Positions 1,603 through 27,143 of a stretch of DNA of 27,143 nucleotides are shown here, in pieces. How positions within the stretch are numbered: position 1 is the stretch's first letter; each line of letters opens with the position of its first letter. The position numbers and the translations under genes are program-made. The stretch is from positions 1 through 27,143 of the forward strand of contig DYNG01000001.1 of NCBI GenBank assembly GCA_020721165.1. Direction: 5' to 3'. Source of the stretch: Desulfocapsa sulfexigens (GTDB taxonomy: Bacteria; Desulfobacterota; Desulfobulbia; Desulfobulbales; Desulfocapsaceae). The notes under the pieces were generated by a model, which searched no databases, had not been told where the DNA came from, and was given only the letters and a program-made list of their open reading frames with translations.

Positions 1603-2121
1603 TCAGGGATGACATAAGCGGAGGATACTGTCTGGTACTTTTTCCACCGGTATCCCTAAAACACAGGAGAATCCGATGAGCTCATCGCCTGTGCAATTAA
1701 AAATTAGGGGCAGCCATTGATTGTCATCACGAAAGGAGGACTCCTTCTCCGCCACAATTTGCAATAAGGCAAGGAGCTCCTGAGCGACTTTAACCTGAAC
1801 GGCGGGGTCATTTGTATGCCCCCGCCGTTGTCGAAAGGCAAGAAAACGATTCCAATTAGAAATAGCTCGCTTGAGGCCTCGGTACACCCCGAGCTTCCTG
1901 TTTTCATAACAAAGATCACGGAAGATGATCTCTTGATAACGGGCACTGGCAGCTTCCAGCAACAGATCAATCTCTTCTTTGGTCAACCATAACCGTGGCC
2001 CATCGCGATCTTCCGTAAGATAATGGAGAGCCGAGTGGAAGGCAATCTCAGGGATTTCACCAGAATGCCGTACCAGTAACCATTCATCAGCTAAGACATC
2101 TGCTCGATCCGCAGAGAGCAT
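1603..2121 (-). CDS. Hypothetical protein, last gene of the hemA cluster
   Basis: 172-aa ORF whose start overlaps the hemA stop by 1 nt (position 2121), indicating translational coupling. No recognisable catalytic motif. Confidence 0.75.
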   Translation of the reverse strand: MLSADRADVLADEWLLVRHSGEIPEIAFHSALHYLTEDRDGPRLWLTKEEIDLLLEAASARYQEIIFRDLCYENRKLGVYRGLKRAISNWNRFLAFRQRRGHTNDPAVQVKVAQELLALLQIVAEKESSFRDDNQWLPLIFNCTGDELIGFSCVLGIPVEKVPDSILRLCHP

Positions 2122-3428
2122 TATTTTTCCTCTAAACCAAAAGCAGTACGAATCATCTCCACCTTTTCGTCATGCCTTTCCTTACACCCCTCTTCATCCT
2201 TGAGATAGGCAATGGGAGCATGCAGCAATTTGGCCGTAATTGCCAAAGCCATCTTTTCAATCACCTGATGATCTTCAAGCGTAAGGTGGGGTAATCGTCC
2301 CAGAGCCTTCTCTATTTCTAACTGACTAATATCGTTCGCCCTCTTTCTTAAAGCAATAATCGTAGGCACCACCGCAAGCCCATCGAGCCAGCGCTGAAAG
2401 TTAGCCGTCTCTTCATCAACAATACGCCGCGCCTTGACCGCTTCCTTCTCCCTTTCAGACTTGTTCAGCTCTACGACTTGATGCAGGTCATCAATATCAT
2501 AAAGATACACATTGTCCAGCTCATTCAATGCCGGATCAAGATCACGGGGCACGGCAATATCAATAAAGAAAATGGGTTCATTGCGACGGGCCCGCATAAT
2601 TGCTTTCATCTCCTGTTTATGCAGAATGAGATGAGGAGCACCCGTTGAACTGATGACAATATCAACCTGTTCCAGTTGATCAGTGAGTGCATCCAGAGAA
2701 ACCGCAGAACCATGAAAGCGTTGCGCCAGGCTCGTCGCCCGGGACAAGGTCCGATTGGCAACCACCACCTTATCAACCCCTTGGCTGACCAGATGCTCTG
2801 CCGCAAGCTCTGCCATTTCACCAGCCCCGATCAGCAAAACGCTCTTGGTATCCAGACTGCCAAAGATCTTTCTGGCCAGTTCAACGGCGGCATAACTGAT
2901 AGAAACGGCCGAGGCTCCAATAAGCGTTTCCGTTCGTACCCGCTTGGCCGTCGAAAACGCTTTATGCAGTAATTTATTGAGAATGGGACCGGTGCCCTTT
3001 CCCTCTGTGGCAAGACGATACGCCTCCTTTAATTGTCCAAGAATCTGTGCTTCTCCAATGACCATCGAATCAAGGCTGGTGGCCACCATAAAAAGATGAT
3101 GCACGGCATCAATGTTGCGATGGATATAGAGATAATCTTGATAATGCTCAGGGGCAACCGTATTCCCAAAAAGGAGGGGCACTATCCGGGACTCAATATC
3201 TGCACGACCCGCATTTTCCAACACTGCATTTTCTTGAACAACGACAATAATTTCAACCCGATTGCAGGTTGAAAGCAGATAACATTCTCGGCATCCATCC
3301 AGTTTCTGCAATTCTTGCAGGGTTTCCTCATAACTCTTCCCGCCCTGACCAATGGCCAACTGCTCACGAACTGCCAGTGGCGCTGTTTTATGGTTCACCC
3401 CCAAAAGCAAAATCATCTCACTGGGCAT
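2121..3428 (-). CDS. hemA: Glutamyl-tRNA reductase
   Basis: LLGVNHKTAPLAVRE, catalytic LSTCNRVE, SLDSMVIGEAQILGQ, NADPH-binding IGAGEM, DIAVPRD. GGAGG precedes the ATG at 3428; an alternative ATG is at 3416. Confidence 0.97.
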   Translation of the reverse strand: MPSEMILLLGVNHKTAPLAVREQLAIGQGGKSYEETLQELQKLDGCRECYLLSTCNRVEIIVVVQENAVLENAGRADIESRIVPLLFGNTVAPEHYQDYLYIHRNIDAVHHLFMVATSLDSMVIGEAQILGQLKEAYRLATEGKGTGPILNKLLHKAFSTAKRVRTETLIGASAVSISYAAVELARKIFGSLDTKSVLLIGAGEMAELAAEHLVSQGVDKVVVANRTLSRATSLAQRFHGSAVSLDALTDQLEQVDIVISSTGAPHLILHKQEMKAIMRARRNEPIFFIDIAVPRDLDPALNELDNVYLYDIDDLHQVVELNKSEREKEAVKARRIVDEETANFQRWLDGLAVVPTIIALRKRANDISQLEIEKALGRLPHLTLEDHQVIEKMALAITAKLLHAPIAYLKDEEGCKERHDEKVEMIRTAFGLEEK

Positions 3429-19679: not shown

Positions 19680-20630
19680 CTATTCTTTCGTCCGATGCAA
19701 GCCAAGAACAACTCGCCTCAAAGAATTCGCGGCATATCGCCAGATCTGAAACCGAACCGGTTCCAAAAAAGAGGGGGCCACAAACCCAGAGCCAAAAAAA
19801 TCCGCAGGTTGCAAAAGCGGAAAGAGAAGGTCCGCAAGCGAACTTCCTGTTAACTTTCTTTCTGAGGCCACTCGCCACAAGGGGCTCTTGCATGGCTCCA
19901 ACTCAAGAGCAGCGAGCAATGCTGTGTCTAATGCCACGGCGCTCGGGGAAACCGCCACACAGCCAAAGAGCAGGGGGTCTCCATGCACCGGCCCATGCCG
20001 GTGCATCACTTCAATCCCATCGGCGACAACCAGGGTGTCTGGTAAAAGTTCATGCAACTCGATTATCATTTCCGCAAACTGCCGATGAGATTGGCCATGC
20101 CAGCCTCCCCGCATGTGCAGCCAGGATTTTCGGACTCCAGGCACAATACCAAAAATATTTTTCACCGCCATACTCACCAACATCTGGTCATGAGCCTTGA
20201 TCTTGGGCAGATTCACCAACAAATCGCACTCAAGAGCGCTGGCCGCAATCTTTACCGTTCTACCGCTGGCCAATCGTTTGGGTACAGACACAGAAAAATC
20301 AACAACAGGCACTGCCATGCCTCGAATGGCCCGCAAGAGCCCTTGTTGCTCCGCACAATGAAGCACACTGCCAAAAGCGGGTGAGTCACCCAGACGCACC
20401 CGACAGCTATGATCAAGAAACCACGCCGCCACAGCCGCAATAAATTCCGCATGGGTACATGCCAAAGAAGGGGCTGCGGCGCTGACCAGATTGGGTTTCA
20501 ACAAGATAGTGGTGCCAGGAGAAAGGGACGCGCAAATGGCGCCAGAAAGGATTTTATCCACAACTCTTTGCAGCGAGCGACGAGTGTATTCGTGACAACG
20601 ATCGAGAAAAACAGGAGGGAAAGAGGACAT
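19680..20630 (-). CDS. DUF362 domain-containing protein (no ferredoxin extension)
   Basis: ILLKPNLV, CTHAEF, GDSP, LVNLPKIKAH..SMAVKNIFG, VVADGIEVMH..GP..G.P, AVALD. Confidence 0.88.
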   Translation of the reverse strand: MSSFPPVFLDRCHEYTRRSLQRVVDKILSGAICASLSPGTTILLKPNLVSAAAPSLACTHAEFIAAVAAWFLDHSCRVRLGDSPAFGSVLHCAEQQGLLRAIRGMAVPVVDFSVSVPKRLASGRTVKIAASALECDLLVNLPKIKAHDQMLVSMAVKNIFGIVPGVRKSWLHMRGGWHGQSHRQFAEMIIELHELLPDTLVVADGIEVMHRHGPVHGDPLLFGCVAVSPSAVALDTALLAALELEPCKSPLWRVASERKLTGSSLADLLFPLLQPADFFGSGFVAPSFLEPVRFQIWRYAANSLRRVVLGLHRTKE

Positions 20631-21091
20631 AAAGAGAAAGAAGGGGTGACAAACACGGGCCTGAAAATAGAAAAAGCCAGTCACACACGCGTGGACCGGC
20701 TTTTTCCAAGGAGAGAAGAGATACTTAATTTAATGCATAAACCAGGCCACACCAGAATATAAAATAGAATAAATCTAATATATCAATGGCTTGATCGAAA
20801 ATCATGTCTTATTCGAGGGAAGAAAAAAGGCCATTCACCCCCTGTTTATTCAATTTTTTATACCCAGTCAAGAGAAAAGACCGCCAGGAAATTACGATTA
20901 TATCGCTATATCAGGCCATTATACGAACAATTATTTGAATCAAGCTCCTCCAATATATTTACCACCTCCTGAACACGCCTTTTTTTCCCCCAAAGCAGCT
21001 TTTTTTTGGTGTTTCCTGCATCTTCTGCTATGCTAAAAAATATTCCTGACCATTCTTTCCCTCTGATTCTTTTTTTGACCACCAAAAACCT

Positions 21092-23296
21092 ATGCCTTCA
21101 TTTTCATCATCCGCCAGAATATTCCATGAAAAACTGATCCATCTGTTTGATTATGGCCTTTCGTTTCAAGTAGTAATGCTCTCTTTCTATTTATTGGAGG
21201 TCTTTCTTTTACGCGAAATGCTCTCTTCTGCCTTTGCCTCTGTGACGCTCTGCGGCATCATCCTGGCAACCCTGTCCATAGCCCTTATTCTCCATCTCCG
21301 ACGAGGATCTCCCCGAAAAAGACGCAAAAAATGGCGCTTCCTGTTTCTTCTTTTGTTCCTGCAATCCTCTCTCTGGGGCGGCAGCGCCCTTCTGTTCATC
21401 CATGCCAGTGTGCCACACCTATTCATTCACACCCTGCTTCTCCTGTCCATCAGCATATCCTTCTCTTTCTATCTCGCCCCTTTTCCCCTCATAGCCTACA
21501 CATCTCTGGGTATCATCATCACGCCCTTCCTGGCCCTTTCTTTCTTCACTGCTACCCACAGCTTCACCACTCTTGTCACTGGCCTGTTCACTCTGGTAAT
21601 CATGAGCAGCTTCGTTCTTTTTTTCTTCTCGCGCATTATCGAGGCCAACATTCTTCTCAAGATTCAGAATCAGAAGGCCCTGCGCAACCTCACCACCAAA
21701 CTCCACCAACTCTCCCAGGAAAAACCGTCGAAACCAACTGGCCGCAGCGAGGCTATCTGGAATGCTATTCTCACCATTACCGACCAGGCCCACCTGCAGG
21801 ATACCTGGCAGAACTGCTTCAGCGGTAAACTCTCCAGCCTCTGTCACCCCTTGGAAACCAGCCGTATATACATCGTCGAGGCAAACTACCACAAAACTCC
21901 GACCACCCGGCACCAAGATAAATATCAAGCCAGTATTGACCATAGCTGGATATTCAACAATTCCGACTGTATCGCCCTGCTCAAATCAGGACAGATTGTG
22001 GATAATCGCTCTCCCCTGCTCTCAGAATGGGAACGAGGGGAGCTGCATGCCCTTGGTATCCGGTCTTTCCTCGATATCCCCATCCTCATCAAAGACTCCC
22101 TCTGGGGCCTTATTGGCATGGACAGGATGACGACTGACACCCCTTTTACCGAATCCCAGATCAAAGGACTGAAACTGATTGCCAATATCCTCGCCCTCAC
22201 CATTCGGAATCAACAGGATCGTGCAGAGCGAAATCGGCTGGCAGCCGTTGTCGAACAATCAAACGATTGTGTTCTTCTCACCAACCCAGCCGGTCACATC
22301 CTCTATGCCAATCCCGCCTGCGAAACCATTACCGGCTATAGCCCCTCTGAAATCATCAACACCAACATTGCCCAACTCCACCCCGAGACCATCATGGACA
22401 GCGAAATCTGGCAACAGGTCGCAAAAGCCTTGCATAACGGGGAAAAATGGCAGGGGCAATTCCCCAACTATCGCAAAGATCTCAGCCTCTACGAAGAAGA
22501 AATGCTCCTTTCACCCGCCTATGATCCGGTCAATAATATTATTAATCAAGTCATCGTCAAACGAAATATCACCGAAAAGAAGCGACTGGAATCCGTGGCC
22601 GAGGCCGCCAACCTTATGGACAATATCGGCTTCATTTTCTCCAGTATTCGCCACGAGCTGGGCAACCCGATCAATGCCATCAAAGTATCCCTTTCGGTTT
22701 TGGATTCTAATCTGCACTCATACGACCATGCTGATATTAAACGATTTATCAACCGCAGCCTGGCCGATATAGGTCGCGTCGAATATCTGCTGAAAACCCT
22801 CAAAAACTTCAGTATTTTTGAGCGACCCATTATTGAAGAGACCGACATGACGGCCCTGCTTACCCGATTTGTTGCCCTGGTCAACACAGACCTGGAGAGG
22901 AAAGACATCAAGCTGACCACCAATATCACTACAATTAAAGACCCCAGAATCGGCCAAGTTGACCACCGAGCCTTTCAGCAGGTTCTCCTCAATCTGGTTG
23001 CCAATGCCGCCGACGCTCTGGCCAGTGTTGAGCCCAAAAGAATCACGATCACCATGCTGAAAGAAAAAAATGGCCAAATCAATATCATTATTGGCGACAA
23101 TGGTTGTGGAATCAGTGAGGAAGAACAGGCCAATCTGTTCAAACCCTTTTATACCACCAAGCCACAAGGCACGGGGCTGGGCCTGATTATTGTCAAAAAA
23201 ATGCTGGCCAAGATGAATTGTTCCATTGCTATTTATAGTAAAAAAAACAAAGGAACCAAAGTGTTAATTGTTATCCCCGGCCTTGAGCACCGATGA
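21092..23296 (+). CDS. Membrane sensor histidine kinase (multi-TM, GAF, PAS, HisKA, HATPase_c)
   Basis: About 5-6 hydrophobic N-terminal segments, GAF (GIRSFLDIPI..LWGLIGMD), PAS (YANPACETITGYS..WQG..NYRKD), H-box RHELGNPIN, N-box QVLLNLVANA, DNGCGI, FKPFYTTK, GTGLGL. Confidence 0.95.
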   Translation: MPSFSSSARIFHEKLIHLFDYGLSFQVVMLSFYLLEVFLLREMLSSAFASVTLCGIILATLSIALILHLRRGSPRKRRKKWRFLFLLLFLQSSLWGGSALLFIHASVPHLFIHTLLLLSISISFSFYLAPFPLIAYTSLGIIITPFLALSFFTATHSFTTLVTGLFTLVIMSSFVLFFFSRIIEANILLKIQNQKALRNLTTKLHQLSQEKPSKPTGRSEAIWNAILTITDQAHLQDTWQNCFSGKLSSLCHPLETSRIYIVEANYHKTPTTRHQDKYQASIDHSWIFNNSDCIALLKSGQIVDNRSPLLSEWERGELHALGIRSFLDIPILIKDSLWGLIGMDRMTTDTPFTESQIKGLKLIANILALTIRNQQDRAERNRLAAVVEQSNDCVLLTNPAGHILYANPACETITGYSPSEIINTNIAQLHPETIMDSEIWQQVAKALHNGEKWQGQFPNYRKDLSLYEEEMLLSPAYDPVNNIINQVIVKRNITEKKRLESVAEAANLMDNIGFIFSSIRHELGNPINAIKVSLSVLDSNLHSYDHADIKRFINRSLADIGRVEYLLKTLKNFSIFERPIIEETDMTALLTRFVALVNTDLERKDIKLTTNITTIKDPRIGQVDHRAFQQVLLNLVANAADALASVEPKRITITMLKEKNGQINIIIGDNGCGISEEEQANLFKPFYTTKPQGTGLGLIIVKKMLAKMNCSIAIYSKKNKGTKVLIVIPGLEHR

Positions 23297-23450
23297 GCAA
23301 CAAAATCAGTTCTGGCAACAGCTTTTTCTGGACAGAGGGCAATGGCCCGTGGTACAAGAAAATAGGTTTCGATTCCATAAGACTGTGGTTGCACACAAAG
23401 TTATTCGCTCTACTTACGATCCGGACGACAGAACCGGTACAGGAGATGCT

Positions 23451-24644
23451 ATGAATACTGTTCTTGTTGTTGACGATGACGAAAGTTTCTTGTTGAATCT
23501 CATTGAAGGTTTCAAATCCTATCAGGATCAATTCAGCATCATGACGGCCAGCAATGGTGAAGAAGCCGTCACCATTCTTGACCAGCACGAAATCCATCTG
23601 GTTCTGACCGACCTGAAAATGCCAGTCATGGACGGATTCGCCCTGGTCGCCCACCTCAGCGCCAATCATGCCGCCATTCCGGTCATTGTCATGACGGCCT
23701 TTGGCACTCCGGAGATGGAAGATTCTCTCAAGGAGATCGGGGCTTTTCAGTATATCGAAAAACCCATTGACTTCAATGTATTGGTTTCAAAGATTCTCAA
23801 AGGCCTGGAAAGCCGCTCTAAAGGGCTCATTAGTGGGGTCTCACTGAGTTCCTTTGTGCAGCTGCTGGAACTTGACAAAAAAACCTGCACCATCACGGCC
23901 CATGCAGAAAAAAGACAGGGTAATCTGTATTTCAAAAACGGCGAGCTCATGGATGCCAACGCTGGAGATCTTACTGGAATTGATGCCGCCTTCGAAATTT
24001 TCAGCTGGGAGAATGTGGGAATCCTCCTGACCAACTCCTGCCCCATCAGCGAGCAAAAAATCCATGAGTCTCTCGGCTTTATTCTTCTGGAGGGAAGTCG
24101 GCGACAGGACGAGCGAGAATCTCCCGATAGTGCCCCAGCCACAATGGCCAGTCCGGATGCGCCCTTAGGCTCGATTGATCTGGCTGGATTAGAGCTGGGC
24201 CTGGACGATTTTCTTGCGGAAGAGGCTCCTCCGCTGCACGCAAATCCTCCCACACCATCTCCACACACGCCAACGGCCGCACCACCCTCAGCCCATGCCT
24301 CCAATCCCATTCTCACACAATTTATCAGTATGCTGGAGGCAATGCCCGAAATCAGTCATTCCATCCTCATTTCCAAAGAGGGAAATATTCTTCACAGCAC
24401 CAAAACCGGCACTGAGCAGGTGACAAACTTTATCACCTATCTCTCGGTGGTCAGCCAACAGCTGCAAATGGCAATGGGAACCGGAGATTCCCAATATACC
24501 CTGCTCTCGTTGGAAAATGGTCAGAAAATTCTCGCTCTTTGCGGGAAAGAGGTCATTGTTGCGCTGGAAATTGGAAGTTCTGTCATTCCGGGACCCATTG
24601 CTGCCGGATTACGACCAGTATTAAGCAGGATCAGCTTGCAGTAG
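23451..24644 (+). CDS. Response regulator: REC + DUF4388 (PATAN-like) + Pro-rich linker + Roadblock-like domain
   Basis: Intact receiver (VVDDD, LTDLKMPVMDG, MTAFG, EKP), DUF4388 pattern GVSLSSFVQLLELDKKTC..GNLYFKNGE..AAFEIFSW, C-terminal alpha/beta domain. AGGAG RBS before the ATG at 23451. Confidence 0.88.
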   Translation: MNTVLVVDDDESFLLNLIEGFKSYQDQFSIMTASNGEEAVTILDQHEIHLVLTDLKMPVMDGFALVAHLSANHAAIPVIVMTAFGTPEMEDSLKEIGAFQYIEKPIDFNVLVSKILKGLESRSKGLISGVSLSSFVQLLELDKKTCTITAHAEKRQGNLYFKNGELMDANAGDLTGIDAAFEIFSWENVGILLTNSCPISEQKIHESLGFILLEGSRRQDERESPDSAPATMASPDAPLGSIDLAGLELGLDDFLAEEAPPLHANPPTPSPHTPTAAPPSAHASNPILTQFISMLEAMPEISHSILISKEGNILHSTKTGTEQVTNFITYLSVVSQQLQMAMGTGDSQYTLLSLENGQKILALCGKEVIVALEIGSSVIPGPIAAGLRPVLSRISLQ

Positions 24645-24715
24645 GCACAAGCCCCCTTCTCTCAAAATGTCCTCAACTCCCAGCAGCAGGACGCAGATCA
24701 TAAAGGAAACACGCC

Positions 24716-25387
24716 ATGGACTCACTCCTCAAGGAAATCAATATGCTTCCCGGAGTTTTTGGTTGTTTTGTTTATACCGGTCATCAAGAATTGGCAGGAG
24801 CAAAACTTCCCCCTATTTTCAAGGAAAACACCATCGCGACCATGGGTAATCTTCTCACCCGCACCCTCAAAATGGCCACCATGGCCGATCTGCATTTAGC
24901 GGGGCTCGAATTTAAATTTGATGTTTCTTTGCTGATGGTAAAACCTCTGGAAGATGGTTCCATCCTGGTCATGGTGTGCGAGCCTGCCGTTAATAAGTCT
25001 TTGATCAATATGACCCTCGGCATGTTGGTCGCTGATATTCAGGCCGCCATCAACAAAGGGCCTGTACAGGCGCAAATAGCGCCCTCACCGGCGGCACAAC
25101 CAGCGACACCAGCTGCGGCTGCTCCCCCCGCCCCGGAAGCGCCCCAAAAACGGGAAGCTGACATTGATGCGACTCTGGCGCCGGTCCTGGAGAAAATAAA
25201 GGATGCCTTGGCGTACTCCATTGGCCCAATTGCCGGACAAACCTTGCGAGAATCCATCGAAACCTGGGCCCAACAAGGCCCGACCACCAAAAAAGAGCTA
25301 CCTGGACTGGCGGCGCTGTTGTGCAAAGAGATCAATGACAAAGATCTGGAAAAAGAATTTATGGAACAGATAAAACCTCTTTTCTGA
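24716..25387 (+). CDS. Roadblock/LC7 (MglB-like) domain protein with an Ala/Pro linker and a small helical C-terminal domain
   Basis: LLKEINMLPGVFGCFVY..LEFKFDVSLLMVKPL..ILVMVCEPAVNKSLINM roadblock-like pattern, linker PSPAAQPATPAAAAPPAPE, C-terminal LAYSIGPIA..LAALLCKEI..KEF. AAGGA RBS. Confidence 0.7.
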   Translation: MDSLLKEINMLPGVFGCFVYTGHQELAGAKLPPIFKENTIATMGNLLTRTLKMATMADLHLAGLEFKFDVSLLMVKPLEDGSILVMVCEPAVNKSLINMTLGMLVADIQAAINKGPVQAQIAPSPAAQPATPAAAAPPAPEAPQKREADIDATLAPVLEKIKDALAYSIGPIAGQTLRESIETWAQQGPTTKKELPGLAALLCKEINDKDLEKEFMEQIKPLF

Positions 25388-25410
25388 TTCTGTATCTCGC
25401 TTGCCAAGAT

Positions 25411-27143
25411 TCAACCTAAATCCTCGCCCTGCCCACCAGTTCTCACAGCAACAGCAGGAATCCCCTCCAGCACGATAATTTGCTGGAGACGATGAATAGT
25501 GTGTTCCCGTTCCGGTAAAAAAACAAGTACTGCCGACTGCCCGCTACAACGAAGACCCAATTCGGCAAGACACTCCCTTGAGAAGCGCAGGAATAAACCC
25601 TGGCGAAAAAGTCGTTTTGTACGGCCCTGCTCACTACAGGCAAACGATCCTGCCCCCCCCTCTGCTATTCCGTGCCGATACGCTTGAGTTTTGATCGCCT
25701 GCGGTTGTTCTTCCGTTCGCTCCACCTGGAGAAAGGATGGTAAAAAACGATGTCCGCACCGTAACCAGTCATAACGCAGAATCTCTAACAACAGGCGACT
25801 ATCCCCTCTCTTTACCACCTGTTGGTACAGCAGTCTCCCCATCAACTCCTGCGTAGCCGCCAGAGCGAAAAAATTTTCCTGCTGGCAGCAATACGCCAAT
25901 TCTTGAAAAAAGGAAAAAACATCTTCTCCTTTTCGCCGCAGATACTCCCAAAATGATGGAAAATAGCGATTGTTCACAAATTTTTCCACACATTCACACA
26001 ACCAGTAAAGCTCTCGCAGGGTGGCATGGTCCAACCATTGATTGGCCATAACGGCATAGGGAGGCCGACTGCAGCTCACAAACTGCCACAATGCGGCATC
26101 ACGACTGAGCGCTGTTCCCGGGAGAAGCTTCAGGAGTCCCATCTGTAAATAATGAGCCCCGGTGGCAAAAAGATCGGCAAAAGAATGAGCAAAGCTCTCT
26201 TTCGTTTCAAAGGGAAGACCAAGGATAAGATCGGCATGAAGATGAATGGAACCAATCTGGGCCAATCTTTTGATCGTGTGGAGAACGACCTGACTGACCG
26301 TTGACCGCCGGACCGCTTTCAAGGTCGGGGGATGGGTGGACTGCACCCCTATTTCAAACTGGAAACGACCAGCCGGGACAGTTTGCAGAAAAGCAAACAT
26401 TTCTTCAGTGAAATTGACTGGACTGATTTCAAAATGAAAAAGGGTATCTCCCGGTCGCTCCAGAAGAAACTGCCAGATGGCCAGTGCCCGTTCGGGACGG
26501 TCATTAAAAGTGCGGTCAACAAAACGAAGGGTCGCCGGCTGGTGATCAAGAATCTGGGCAAGCTCCCGCTTCACCAGGGCCAGTTCTTTATGCACCACTC
26601 CATGATCCGCCGAAGAAAGGCAATAGGAACAGGAAAAAGGACAACCGCGCGAACTTTCGTAATAAATGCAGCGATTATGCAGATGAGTACTGAAATCGGC
26701 CTCTCGATACGGCGACACCAGAAGGCCCTTCTGCGCGCTTCCACCCTGGAGAAAACGCCCCTCATAGTAAGGGGCCAGCCTCCTATTTTCCAGATCCCGA
26801 TAAAAGGAGGCCCCCACCGCCTCCATCTCCCCGCTGACCACCGTACAGTGGGACAACAAGGGATTTTCCCTGATTACCAAAGCCTGAGGCCCACCCACCA
26901 CAAATCCACAGTCGGGACGACAGATTTTCAGGTCATGGATAAGCTGTTCTATTCGATCAGAATTCCAGATTGCAGCCGAAAAAAAGATATAATCAGGACT
27001 TCCCGCGCTCAGTCGCAACAATGTTTCATAATAGGAATCATTGATTGTCCATTGACACACTTCTACTGTGACTGAAGGGCAATGGCGCTCCAACTCATTG
27101 CGAACATGAAAAACGGCCAGGCTGGAATGGGTAAAACGGGCAT
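25411..27143 (-). CDS. B12-binding-domain radical SAM protein (DUF4080-type); 5' end lies outside the window
   Basis: The frame is open to the window edge (ARFTHSSLAVFHVRNELE). It has FSAAIWN..VVGGP (B12-binding-like), YESSRGCPFSCSYC (CxxxCxxC), FVDRTFN, EIGVQS, DLILGLP, LKLLPGT. Confidence 0.92.
   Translation of the reverse strand, partial: ARFTHSSLAVFHVRNELERHCPSVTVEVCQWTINDSYYETLLRLSAGSPDYIFFSAAIWNSDRIEQLIHDLKICRPDCGFVVGGPQALVIRENPLLSHCTVVSGEMEAVGASFYRDLENRRLAPYYEGRFLQGGSAQKGLLVSPYREADFSTHLHNRCIYYESSRGCPFSCSYCLSSADHGVVHKELALVKRELAQILDHQPATLRFVDRTFNDRPERALAIWQFLLERPGDTLFHFEISPVNFTEEMFAFLQTVPAGRFQFEIGVQSTHPPTLKAVRRSTVSQVVLHTIKRLAQIGSIHLHADLILGLPFETKESFAHSFADLFATGAHYLQMGLLKLLPGTALSRDAALWQFVSCSRPPYAVMANQWLDHATLRELYWLCECVEKFVNNRYFPSFWEYLRRKGEDVFSFFQELAYCCQQENFFALAATQELMGRLLYQQVVKRGDSRLLLEILRYDWLRCGHRFLPSFLQVERTEEQPQAIKTQAYRHGIAEGGAGSFACSEQGRTKRLFRQGLFLRFSRECLAELGLRCSGQSAVLVFLPEREHTIHRLQQIIVLEGIPAVAVRTGGQGEDLG

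Follow-up and report, generated by a model that had tools for sequence, protein, structure and literature searches.

The stretch of DNA analyzed here (hereafter the window) comprises positions 1 to 27,143 of contig DYNG01000001.1, from an assembly assigned to Desulfocapsa sulfexigens (GCA_020721165.1; Desulfobulbales, Desulfocapsaceae). At positions 21092–25387 it encodes a membrane sensor histidine kinase, a response regulator in which a receiver (REC) is followed by PATAN, a linker and, at the C-terminus, a Roadblock domain, and another Roadblock protein, RB2, with a probable DUF8082 domain at its end. We propose, with moderate confidence, that this locus is a dedicated two-component input to a two-protein Roadblock platform belonging to the polarity systems of the small GTPase MglA and PilB-type ATPases. 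Given the way in which the RB2 tree splits by genomic context and the gene order of related operons, the unit appears to form a separate lineage, coupled to a kinase, within a module that is elsewhere embedded in an MglA/MglB/PilB-like operon.

The three open reading frames (ORFs) are co-directional on the forward strand, as are all features described below unless otherwise stated, and fill the span exactly, as an earlier reading made from the DNA letters and their translations (the sequence-only reading) had described. That reading took the second gene for a regulator without DNA-binding output, and indeed no DNA-binding domain was found in a Pfam scan. It took the third for a stand-alone Roadblock-like protein, which is right as to the fold but not as to the architecture, because the protein is not a plain Roadblock and carries in addition a Pro/Ala-rich linker and DUF8082. 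The regulator ORF opens at a TTG (23268), but its true start is probably the ATG at 23451, since a GGAG lies just upstream of it and the resulting length of 397 amino acids (aa; 23451..24644) is that of most orthologs. The receiver (aa 4–115, 23460..23795; PF00072, 88.7 bits) has the acidic pocket, the phospho-acceptor Asp54 and the conserved Thr and Lys, with D8, D9, D10, D54, T82, and K104 invariant in an alignment of the window protein with 28 orthologs. It is followed by a short form of the PATAN (DUF4388) domain (aa 125–222, 23823..24116; PF14332, 52.3 bits for a cut-off of 25, with the same coordinates in the genome search) and, as delineated by the same alignment, by a Pro/Ser/Ala-rich linker (24117..24296) that includes a conserved acidic-hydrophobic motif (aa 239–255, 24165-24215). 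PATAN domains are also found elsewhere in this genome, in three paralogous fusions to a cyclic-nucleotide-binding domain, two of them in tandem (contigs C223, L003:99-1193, and C92, L004:721-1827 and 2011-3042), which ties the PATAN outputs of this organism to cyclic-nucleotide signals as well. A 193-aa ORF located 3' of the fusion gene on C223 was considered as a relative of RB2 and rejected, as the two are not related.

The C-terminal domain of the regulator, which we call RbA (24297..24641), reaches the Robl_LC7 family (PF03259) over aa 295–370 with a borderline score (24.7 bits, for a cut-off of 23), and precomputed Pfam annotation assigns this family to only one of its orthologs. Its assignment as a Roadblock domain is confirmed by structure prediction: an AlphaFold2 model of the last 115 residues, built from 29 sequences, has a mean predicted local distance difference test score (pLDDT) of 81, a predicted template modeling (TM) score of 0.75 and the same topology as the Roadblock domain of RB2, and it retrieves LAMTOR, Roadblock and MglB structures with a Foldseek probability of 1.00. 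A search of the sequences in the PDB with the RbA profile gave no match at E up to 1.

RB2 (223 aa, 24716..25387) was delineated from its ORF, from the annotation of its homologs and from an AlphaFold2 model built with 30 homologs. Its N-terminal domain, RbB (aa 1–113, 24716..25054; block-mean pLDDT 85–94), is predicted to have the topology alpha-beta-beta-alpha-beta-beta-beta-alpha, and its best matches in the PDB are all Roadblock proteins (Asgard Roadblock, Streptomyces 3KYE, LAMTOR2/3, and MglB), with E-values down to 1e-6, target-normalized TM scores of 0.70–0.80 and a Foldseek probability of 1.00. The models and the structure searches thus agree on a Roadblock fold for both proteins. A Pro/Ala-rich and disordered linker of variable length (aa 116–150, 25061..25165; pLDDT below 50, gappy alignment columns) leads to a C-terminal domain of three helices (residues 152–187, 192–206, and 209–222; 25169..25381; block-mean pLDDT 70–81). 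The latter is assigned to DUF8082, a new Pfam family, because PF26309 is precomputed on all 120 listed homologs of RB2, including a 99%-identical cluster; an Atlas feature search with aa 148–223 also returned a DUF8082 cluster (0.77), which we take as a lead only. RB2 itself had no match in Pfam at E up to 0.1, PF03259 included, with a model set that did not contain PF26309, and none in NCBIfam, where the scan of the three proteins gave only generic kinase and receiver matches; some database sources label its homologs as COG-type Roadblock/LC7/MglB. No mention of DUF8082 was found in the literature searched. The RB2 family is sizeable, as an exhaustive profile search with E up to 1e-3 retrieved 625 cluster representatives, the majority of them 210–230 aa long and matched over both domains.

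The sequence-only reading had further suggested that phosphorylation controls the formation of a heterodimer between the two Roadblock domains. To model this complex, the regulator linker and Roadblock domain (176 aa) were combined with full-length RB2, each partner with its own alignment. In three runs, the interaction prediction score from aligned errors (ipSAE) was 0.82, 0.81, and 0.82, compared with 0.00 for the best of three controls, an outcome that the prediction tool rates as support for binding. Of 80 solved complexes, 58 attain the ipSAE mark, as do 2 of 110 mismatched pairs, a calibration that is rough here since custom alignments were used. At least 86% of contacts were common to the runs, and the pLDDT of the partner was at least 74. 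The predicted interface involves the alpha2 helix and the beta3 strand of both partners, as in the canonical Roadblock dimer, and no confident contact was reported for the acidic motif of the regulator linker or for DUF8082.

In our view, the strongest evidence pointing to pairing is the adjacency of RbA and RbB across at least three arrangements besides that of the window, seen when gene order was inspected in 12 loci. The window type (a) consists of the kinase, REC-PATAN-RbA and RbB-DUF8082, and in a second type (b) the latter two proteins are encoded within mglBA operons. In a third, REC-less type (c; L060, L061, and L067), RbB-DUF8082 accompanies a PATAN-RbA protein of ~242 aa. In a fourth (d; GCA_945787465.1), the tether is swapped: the kinase is followed by a 489-aa REC-PATAN-RbB-DUF8082 protein and, after a gap of 1 bp, by a 127-aa homolog of RbA that aligns with it from end to end (111 columns; hhalign probability 90%, E 1.7e-6). 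That the tether can be exchanged between the two Roadblock types while both genes remain adjacent is as a hetero-pair predicts. A candidate fifth type (e) occurs in the genus of the window organism, where an RB2-like gene is followed by a 110-aa ORF whose product is a Roadblock protein by a feature-based lead only, with a weak partial hhalign match to RbA and no Pfam Roadblock match. Pairs of this kind, in which the RB2-like protein (219–238 aa) is very diverged, were observed at L065:7682-8702, L066:4824-5874, L068:3512-4553, and L069:7644-8638; in same-genus and same-family genomes they are flanked by genes for LptF/G-type permeases and for NAD(P)HX repair.

Pairing of the two Roadblock domains through the alpha2/beta3 interface is supported as a prediction, but its control by phosphorylation is disfavored, the same Roadblock pair being present in the REC-less versions (L060, L061, and L067). 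Because such pairs exist, pairing looks constitutive and independent of the receiver, whose more likely role is to gate PATAN as an output or to set how active the platform is. An alternative is that each Roadblock protein homodimerizes and that the homodimers stack, as do those of MglC and MglB with RomR, phosphorylation-driven dimerization of the receivers driving the assembly. In the fused protein P0345, RbB belongs to the regulator itself, so that a receiver dimer could join two RbB domains, and the controls of the complex prediction included no homodimers. However, the two distinct Roadblock types are neighbors wherever gene order was inspected, the swapped-tether form included, which is the expectation for an obligate hetero-pair, and the predicted heterodimer interface occupies the very alpha2/beta3 surfaces that a homodimer would need; we therefore consider stacked homodimers unlikely.

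A scan of species-representative genomes identified 39 loci with a relative of RB2, nearly all of them labeled Desulfobulbaceae, Desulfocapsaceae, or Desulfocapsa; some, such as L034, bear the name Desulfocapsa sulfexigens. The regulator lies directly 5' of RB2 in 36 of 36 loci (L007-L042), and the kinase lies 5' of the regulator wherever the flank suffices, including in L020, L021, and L023, which have different outer flanks. The three genes are therefore co-conserved in Desulfobulbales, with their order kept in every related locus with enough flanking sequence. Of 201 genomes sampled from the order, 90 contain a member of the RB2 family, among them all 10 of the same genus and all 8 of one sister genus. 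In a maximum-likelihood tree, 53 RB2 proteins separate cleanly by genomic context, into a kinase-linked group (37 rows, support of 97 in the Shimodaira–Hasegawa-like approximate likelihood-ratio test [SH-aLRT]), a group from mglA operons (9 rows, 97), a REC-less group (3 rows, 94), and a group of small pairs (4 rows, 100). This tree is unrooted, its groups other than the kinase-linked one are small, and four rows counted as kinase-linked have too little flank to show a kinase.

The link with MglA comes from the operon-type relatives in other families of Desulfobulbales. In at least 36 of the 201 genomes, a match to the RB2 profile, spanning in a few cases only part of it, was found 5.3–6.8 kb from an mglA paralog and in the same direction. 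Nine of these loci were read through (L046, L055-L059, and L062-L064) and share a single conserved gene order: mglB (~131 aa); mglA (~206 aa); a gene for a protein of 450–680 aa; a TPR-MshEN-T2SSE ATPase (~780 aa); REC-PATAN-RbA (390–440 aa); and RbB-DUF8082 (211–246 aa). In L063 and L064, the position of mglA comes from the MglA search and mglB was not resolved, and L046 begins inside mglB. The mglA paralogs of the 36 genomes encode a second type of MglA, 50–56% identical to the MglA of the window genome. An ATPase gene of the same kind, together with a PilZ gene, also neighbors a REC-PATAN-DUF8082x2 fusion gene (described below). No Pfam match was obtained for the protein encoded between mglA and the ATPase gene (e.g., L055:3986-5593; likewise in L046, L056-L059, and L062-L064); as a lead only, an Atlas feature search (score 0.93, 176 shared features) pointed to clusters with CheW in 68% of their members. 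In three loci from distant relatives, we also observed a Tll0287-like PAS-like sensor directly 5' of, or near, a PATAN and RB2 pair (L046:8089-8970, L048:4334-5218, and L067:5851-6753; with a HAMP domain in two of the three), which suggests another recurrent input to this module.

The window unit contains no MglA-like GTPase, and the sequence-only reading had anticipated that the partner would be encoded elsewhere in the genome. An mglB-mglA pair is indeed present on contig C168 of the same assembly (L050:5538-8716). The first protein (133 aa) is a Roadblock protein that scores 56 bits against the NCBIfam MglB model NF052242, below the cut-off of 200 bits; the second (201 aa) is a Ras-family GTPase whose translation reveals an MglA-type P-loop region and a TVPGQ switch motif. 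The third gene encodes a 676-aa protein with two copies of a helical module of ~150 aa followed by a long acidic, low-complexity tail, to which no Pfam family could be assigned and which may be a lineage-specific partner of MglA; a role like that of RomX or RomY was considered both for it and for the operon protein encoded between mglA and the ATPase gene. In family f2, the REC-less pair lies 6.5–23 kb from an mglB-mglA pair of this same type (four contigs); in L060 and L061, the latter is on the strand opposite to the REC-less pair and is likewise followed, 3' of mglA, by a homolog of the 676-aa protein. DUF8082 was not detectable in the proteins encoded after mglA, whether the 676-aa protein or those of 450–680 aa in the operons. 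With the MglA of the window genome as query, 150 of the 201 genomes were positive, and MglA was present in all of the 89 other RB2-positive genomes compared with 60 of the 111 RB2-negative ones (51 without).

These findings partly sustain the suggestion that the locus is a polarity or pilus module: homologous regulator and RB2 pairs reside in mglB/mglA/PilB-like operons of many relatives, which is an association, but the regulator is neither a RomR nor a PatA-type protein. In Myxococcus xanthus, the rear pole is determined by a complex in which RomR joins two Roadblock proteins, MglC and MglB (PMC10329633). The window unit resembles the MglA/MglB/MglC/RomR module of this species in coupling a receiver protein with a Pro-rich linker to Roadblock proteins, whose target in Myxococcus is a Ras-like GTPase that governs type IV pili (PMC10329633, PMC4719450), and in the occurrence of MglA and MglB orthologs in the genome. 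It differs in that receiver and Roadblock domain belong to one chain, connected through PATAN, that the second Roadblock protein carries DUF8082, that a heterodimer, not a stack of homodimers, is predicted for the pair, and that a dedicated kinase is adjacent. RomR consists of a receiver, a Pro-rich linker and a Glu-rich alpha-helical C-terminus that binds MglC; the window regulator shares the first two, and PATAN and Roadblock domains replace the third. As for MglB, neither window Roadblock protein matches NF052242, their genes are not next to mglA, which is on C168, and their operon homologs sit alongside a separate mglB. The homologs of the nine mglBA-ATPase operons are 52–60% identical to the window proteins in the receiver, 44–59% in PATAN, 28–39% in the Roadblock domain of RB2, and 21–27% in RbA where BLAST detected it (seven loci); in contrast with these operons, the window unit lacks GTPase, MglB, and ATPase genes, has a membrane GAF-PAS kinase and belongs to a separate RB2 clade.

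The cyanobacterial PatA-type regulators (PixE, PixG, and LsiR) similarly combine PATAN and a receiver with no DNA-binding output, and PATAN is their PilB1-binding output: the PATAN domain of PixE alone binds PilB1 and is sufficient as output, and regulators of this type also bind PilC (bioRxiv 10.1101/2021.06.11.447907). Their PATAN is N-terminal and their receiver C-terminal, however, whereas the window regulator has the reverse order, an additional Roadblock domain and input from a HisKA rather than a CheA-type kinase. The Ragulator subunits LAMTOR2/LAMTOR3 (MP1/p14), diverged Roadblock heterodimers that serve as a small-GTPase platform, rank high among the structures retrieved with both domains; this likeness is one of fold only (10–16% identity), and the window pair is tethered to two-component domains. 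The actinobacterial conservon (kinase CvnA, Roadblock CvnB, CvnC, and GTPase CvnD; PMC4316618) also encodes a kinase beside a Roadblock protein, but the window unit has a REC-PATAN regulator in place of CvnC/DUF742 and the GTPase. By the features tested, the window proteins are thus not members of the MglB, RomR or PatA types, although they would resemble them in their working.

The locus is less novel than first thought, as the association of PATAN with receivers, Roadblock proteins, MglA/MglB and type II secretion system (T2SS)-type ATPases is already in print (PMC4316618; bioRxiv 10.1101/2021.06.11.447907). PATAN genes were noted occasionally in the vicinity of mglA genes of groups 1 and 5 (PMC4316618), MglB homologs were reported to be encoded near PATAN proteins (Makarova et al. 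2006, per PMC4316618), and a conserved connection between PATAN, T2SS ATPases and MglAB was explicitly raised by the authors of the PixE study (bioRxiv 10.1101/2021.06.11.447907). The window unit is probably a kinase-fed offshoot of these MglA/PATAN/PilB-like systems that lacks a GTPase of its own and has a probable bacterial Roadblock heterodimer and the uncharacterized DUF8082.

Several points weigh against assigning the locus to MglA and PilB-type systems. No GTPase, ATPase or pilus gene was found in the window unit or adjoining it; in the genus, only one MglA was found, distant from the unit, and the same-genus and same-family genomes checked have mglA on another contig or megabases away. 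The window genome, a 1.31-Mb metagenome-assembled genome (MAG), is only 63.6% complete. The nested co-occurrence of RB2 and MglA is weak evidence and suggestive only, because MglA is common in the order (150/201) and related genomes are not independent. The kinase-linked and mglA-operon clades are separate in the RB2 tree (SH-aLRT 97 each), and function could have diverged after their separation. The result of the complex prediction, whose controls lacked homodimers, may partly reflect likeness to solved Roadblock dimers rather than specificity, because such dimers are well represented among solved structures. Finally, RbA and RbB are not significantly alike in sequence (E 0.1 in a profile-profile comparison), neither resembles MglB models and RbA does not resemble PDB sequences, so that a role like that of a GTPase-activating protein (GAP) or guanine nucleotide exchange factor (GEF) would be one deduced from fold and context.

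A rival explanation does without any GTPase: PATAN and/or the Roadblock-DUF8082 platform would act directly on a PilB/T2SSE-type ATPase or on another NTPase, and the kinase, sensing a membrane or redox signal, would switch that ATPase. Besides the absence of a GTPase gene from the window unit, it is favored by the finding that PATAN alone suffices for PilB1 binding and phototaxis reversal in Synechocystis (bioRxiv 10.1101/2021.06.11.447907), and by the broad implication of the Roadblock superfamily in NTPase regulation (Koonin and Aravind 2000, cited in PMC4316618). Furthermore, a gene for a REC-PATAN fusion with two DUF8082 domains (REC-PATAN-DUF8082x2) adjoins genes for a TPR-MshEN-T2SSE ATPase and a PilZ protein on a 5.2-kb contig without any GTPase gene, and the four same-genus genomes and the one same-family genome encode 6–8 T2SSE-type ATPases each; in these five genomes, the 781-aa TPR-MshEN-T2SSE ATPase has no clear full-length ortholog, the best match being 45% identical over residues 200–779. 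On the other hand, the pair of the mglA-operon clade always occurs with mglB-mglA, and MglA was found in every RB2-positive genome sampled, and we give the GTPase-free explanation a small chance of being correct. Still less probable is a signaling scaffold unrelated to pili or motility (serving development, the cell envelope or division): PatA acts in Anabaena heterocyst patterning and the conservon in aerial mycelium formation (PMC4316618), the paralogous RB2-like pair of the genus has LptF/G and NAD(P)HX-repair genes on either side, and the window unit is flanked by metabolic genes, but the only conserved functional neighbors of the family are MglA/MglB, PilB-type ATPases and PilZ, and neither CvnC/DUF742 nor CvnD is present at the window locus.

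The kinase (734 aa, 21092..23296) is, in related loci with enough flank, encoded directly 5' of the regulator. The sequence-only reading described it as a GAF-PAS kinase; Pfam identifies both domains, with the correction that the protein is an integral membrane protein with about six transmembrane segments. These hydrophobic segments were located in aa 22–179 (21155..21628) by a Kyte-Doolittle 19-mer scan, in a region that has no Pfam family and is conserved among close relatives only. A partial GAF match (aa 293–371, 21968..22204; PF01590, 34.3 bits) and a PAS domain (aa 381–495, 22232..22576; PF13426, 50.3 bits; PF00989, 44.7 bits) precede the dimerization and histidine phosphotransfer (DHp)/HisKA domain (aa 516–574, 22637..22813), which scores 22.8 bits with PF00512, under the cut-off of 26.9 bits. 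The latter contains the RHELGNP H-box with the presumptive phosphorylation site His521 and is followed by a GHKL-type ATPase domain (HATPase_c; aa 624–729, 22961..23278; PF02518, 79.9 bits), so that both hallmarks of a two-component kinase are present.

In the mechanism that we favor, that of a kinase-fed Roadblock platform for MglA and PilB-type systems, the membrane kinase would sense a signal and phosphorylate Asp54 of the regulator, the outputs of which would be PATAN and RbA rather than DNA binding. RbA would pair with RbB, probably constitutively, through the alpha2/beta3 surfaces, into the asymmetric heterodimer that the complex model predicts and gene order supports. By analogy with MglB, MglC and Ragulator, this heterodimer may bind or regulate the single MglA detected in the genome, and PATAN may contact a PilB-type ATPase, as does that of cyanobacterial PixE. 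Phosphorylation would then toggle PATAN and/or the platform, and not make or break the dimer. A more specific version is doubtful for the present: a Ragulator-like asymmetric heterodimer, with a REC-PATAN arm and a DUF8082 arm, would be a kinase-targeted, phospho-switched platform of GAP or GEF type for MglA, with PATAN engaging the PilB-type motor.

The genes surrounding the locus bear no relation to it: upstream are DUF362, SDR and Maf genes on the opposite strand, and downstream is a convergent radical-SAM/DUF4080 gene, also on the opposite strand. The flanking genes being unrelated and oppositely oriented, the three genes form a self-contained unit. Scans of the locus for promoters (5 promoter-like sites, shuffled mean 5.2) and terminators (1 terminator-like site, shuffled mean 5.7) gave results not above chance, and the operon structure therefore rests on spacing and synteny. 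A 117-aa ORF on the forward strand 5' of the kinase gene (20409-20762) overlaps the 5' end of the opposite-strand DUF362 gene, and its apparent conservation among relatives is confined to the part shared with that gene; it is therefore probably a shadow ORF and not an additional member of the unit. DNA near-identical to window positions 21000-25500 was observed in public metagenome runs from soil (2012), biofilm (2014), sediment (2022), and cave (2025), with no RNA run among those listed. A contig of 1551 bp filed under a "Leptospira biflexa" MAG from sample SulCav (L045, DYNZ01000285.1) encodes a regulator 99% identical to that of the window and is most likely a mis-binned contig of the Desulfobulbales organism of the window.

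Signal routes to the MglA polarity switch are largely unknown outside Myxococcus, and proteins with PATAN, Roadblock and DUF8082 domains are abundant but uncharacterized. As a minimal three-gene system without GTPase or motor genes, the unit is suited to testing the Roadblock heterodimer, the role of DUF8082 and the control of PATAN and Roadblock domains by a receiver, and the kinase-linked, mglA-operon, REC-less and swapped-tether forms provide a natural series of controls. Cable bacteria also belong to Desulfobulbales. If the Ragulator-like version is true, the unit would connect an environmental sensor with a Ras-like polarity GTPase in a single step, without an intervening chemosensory (Frz-like) pathway.

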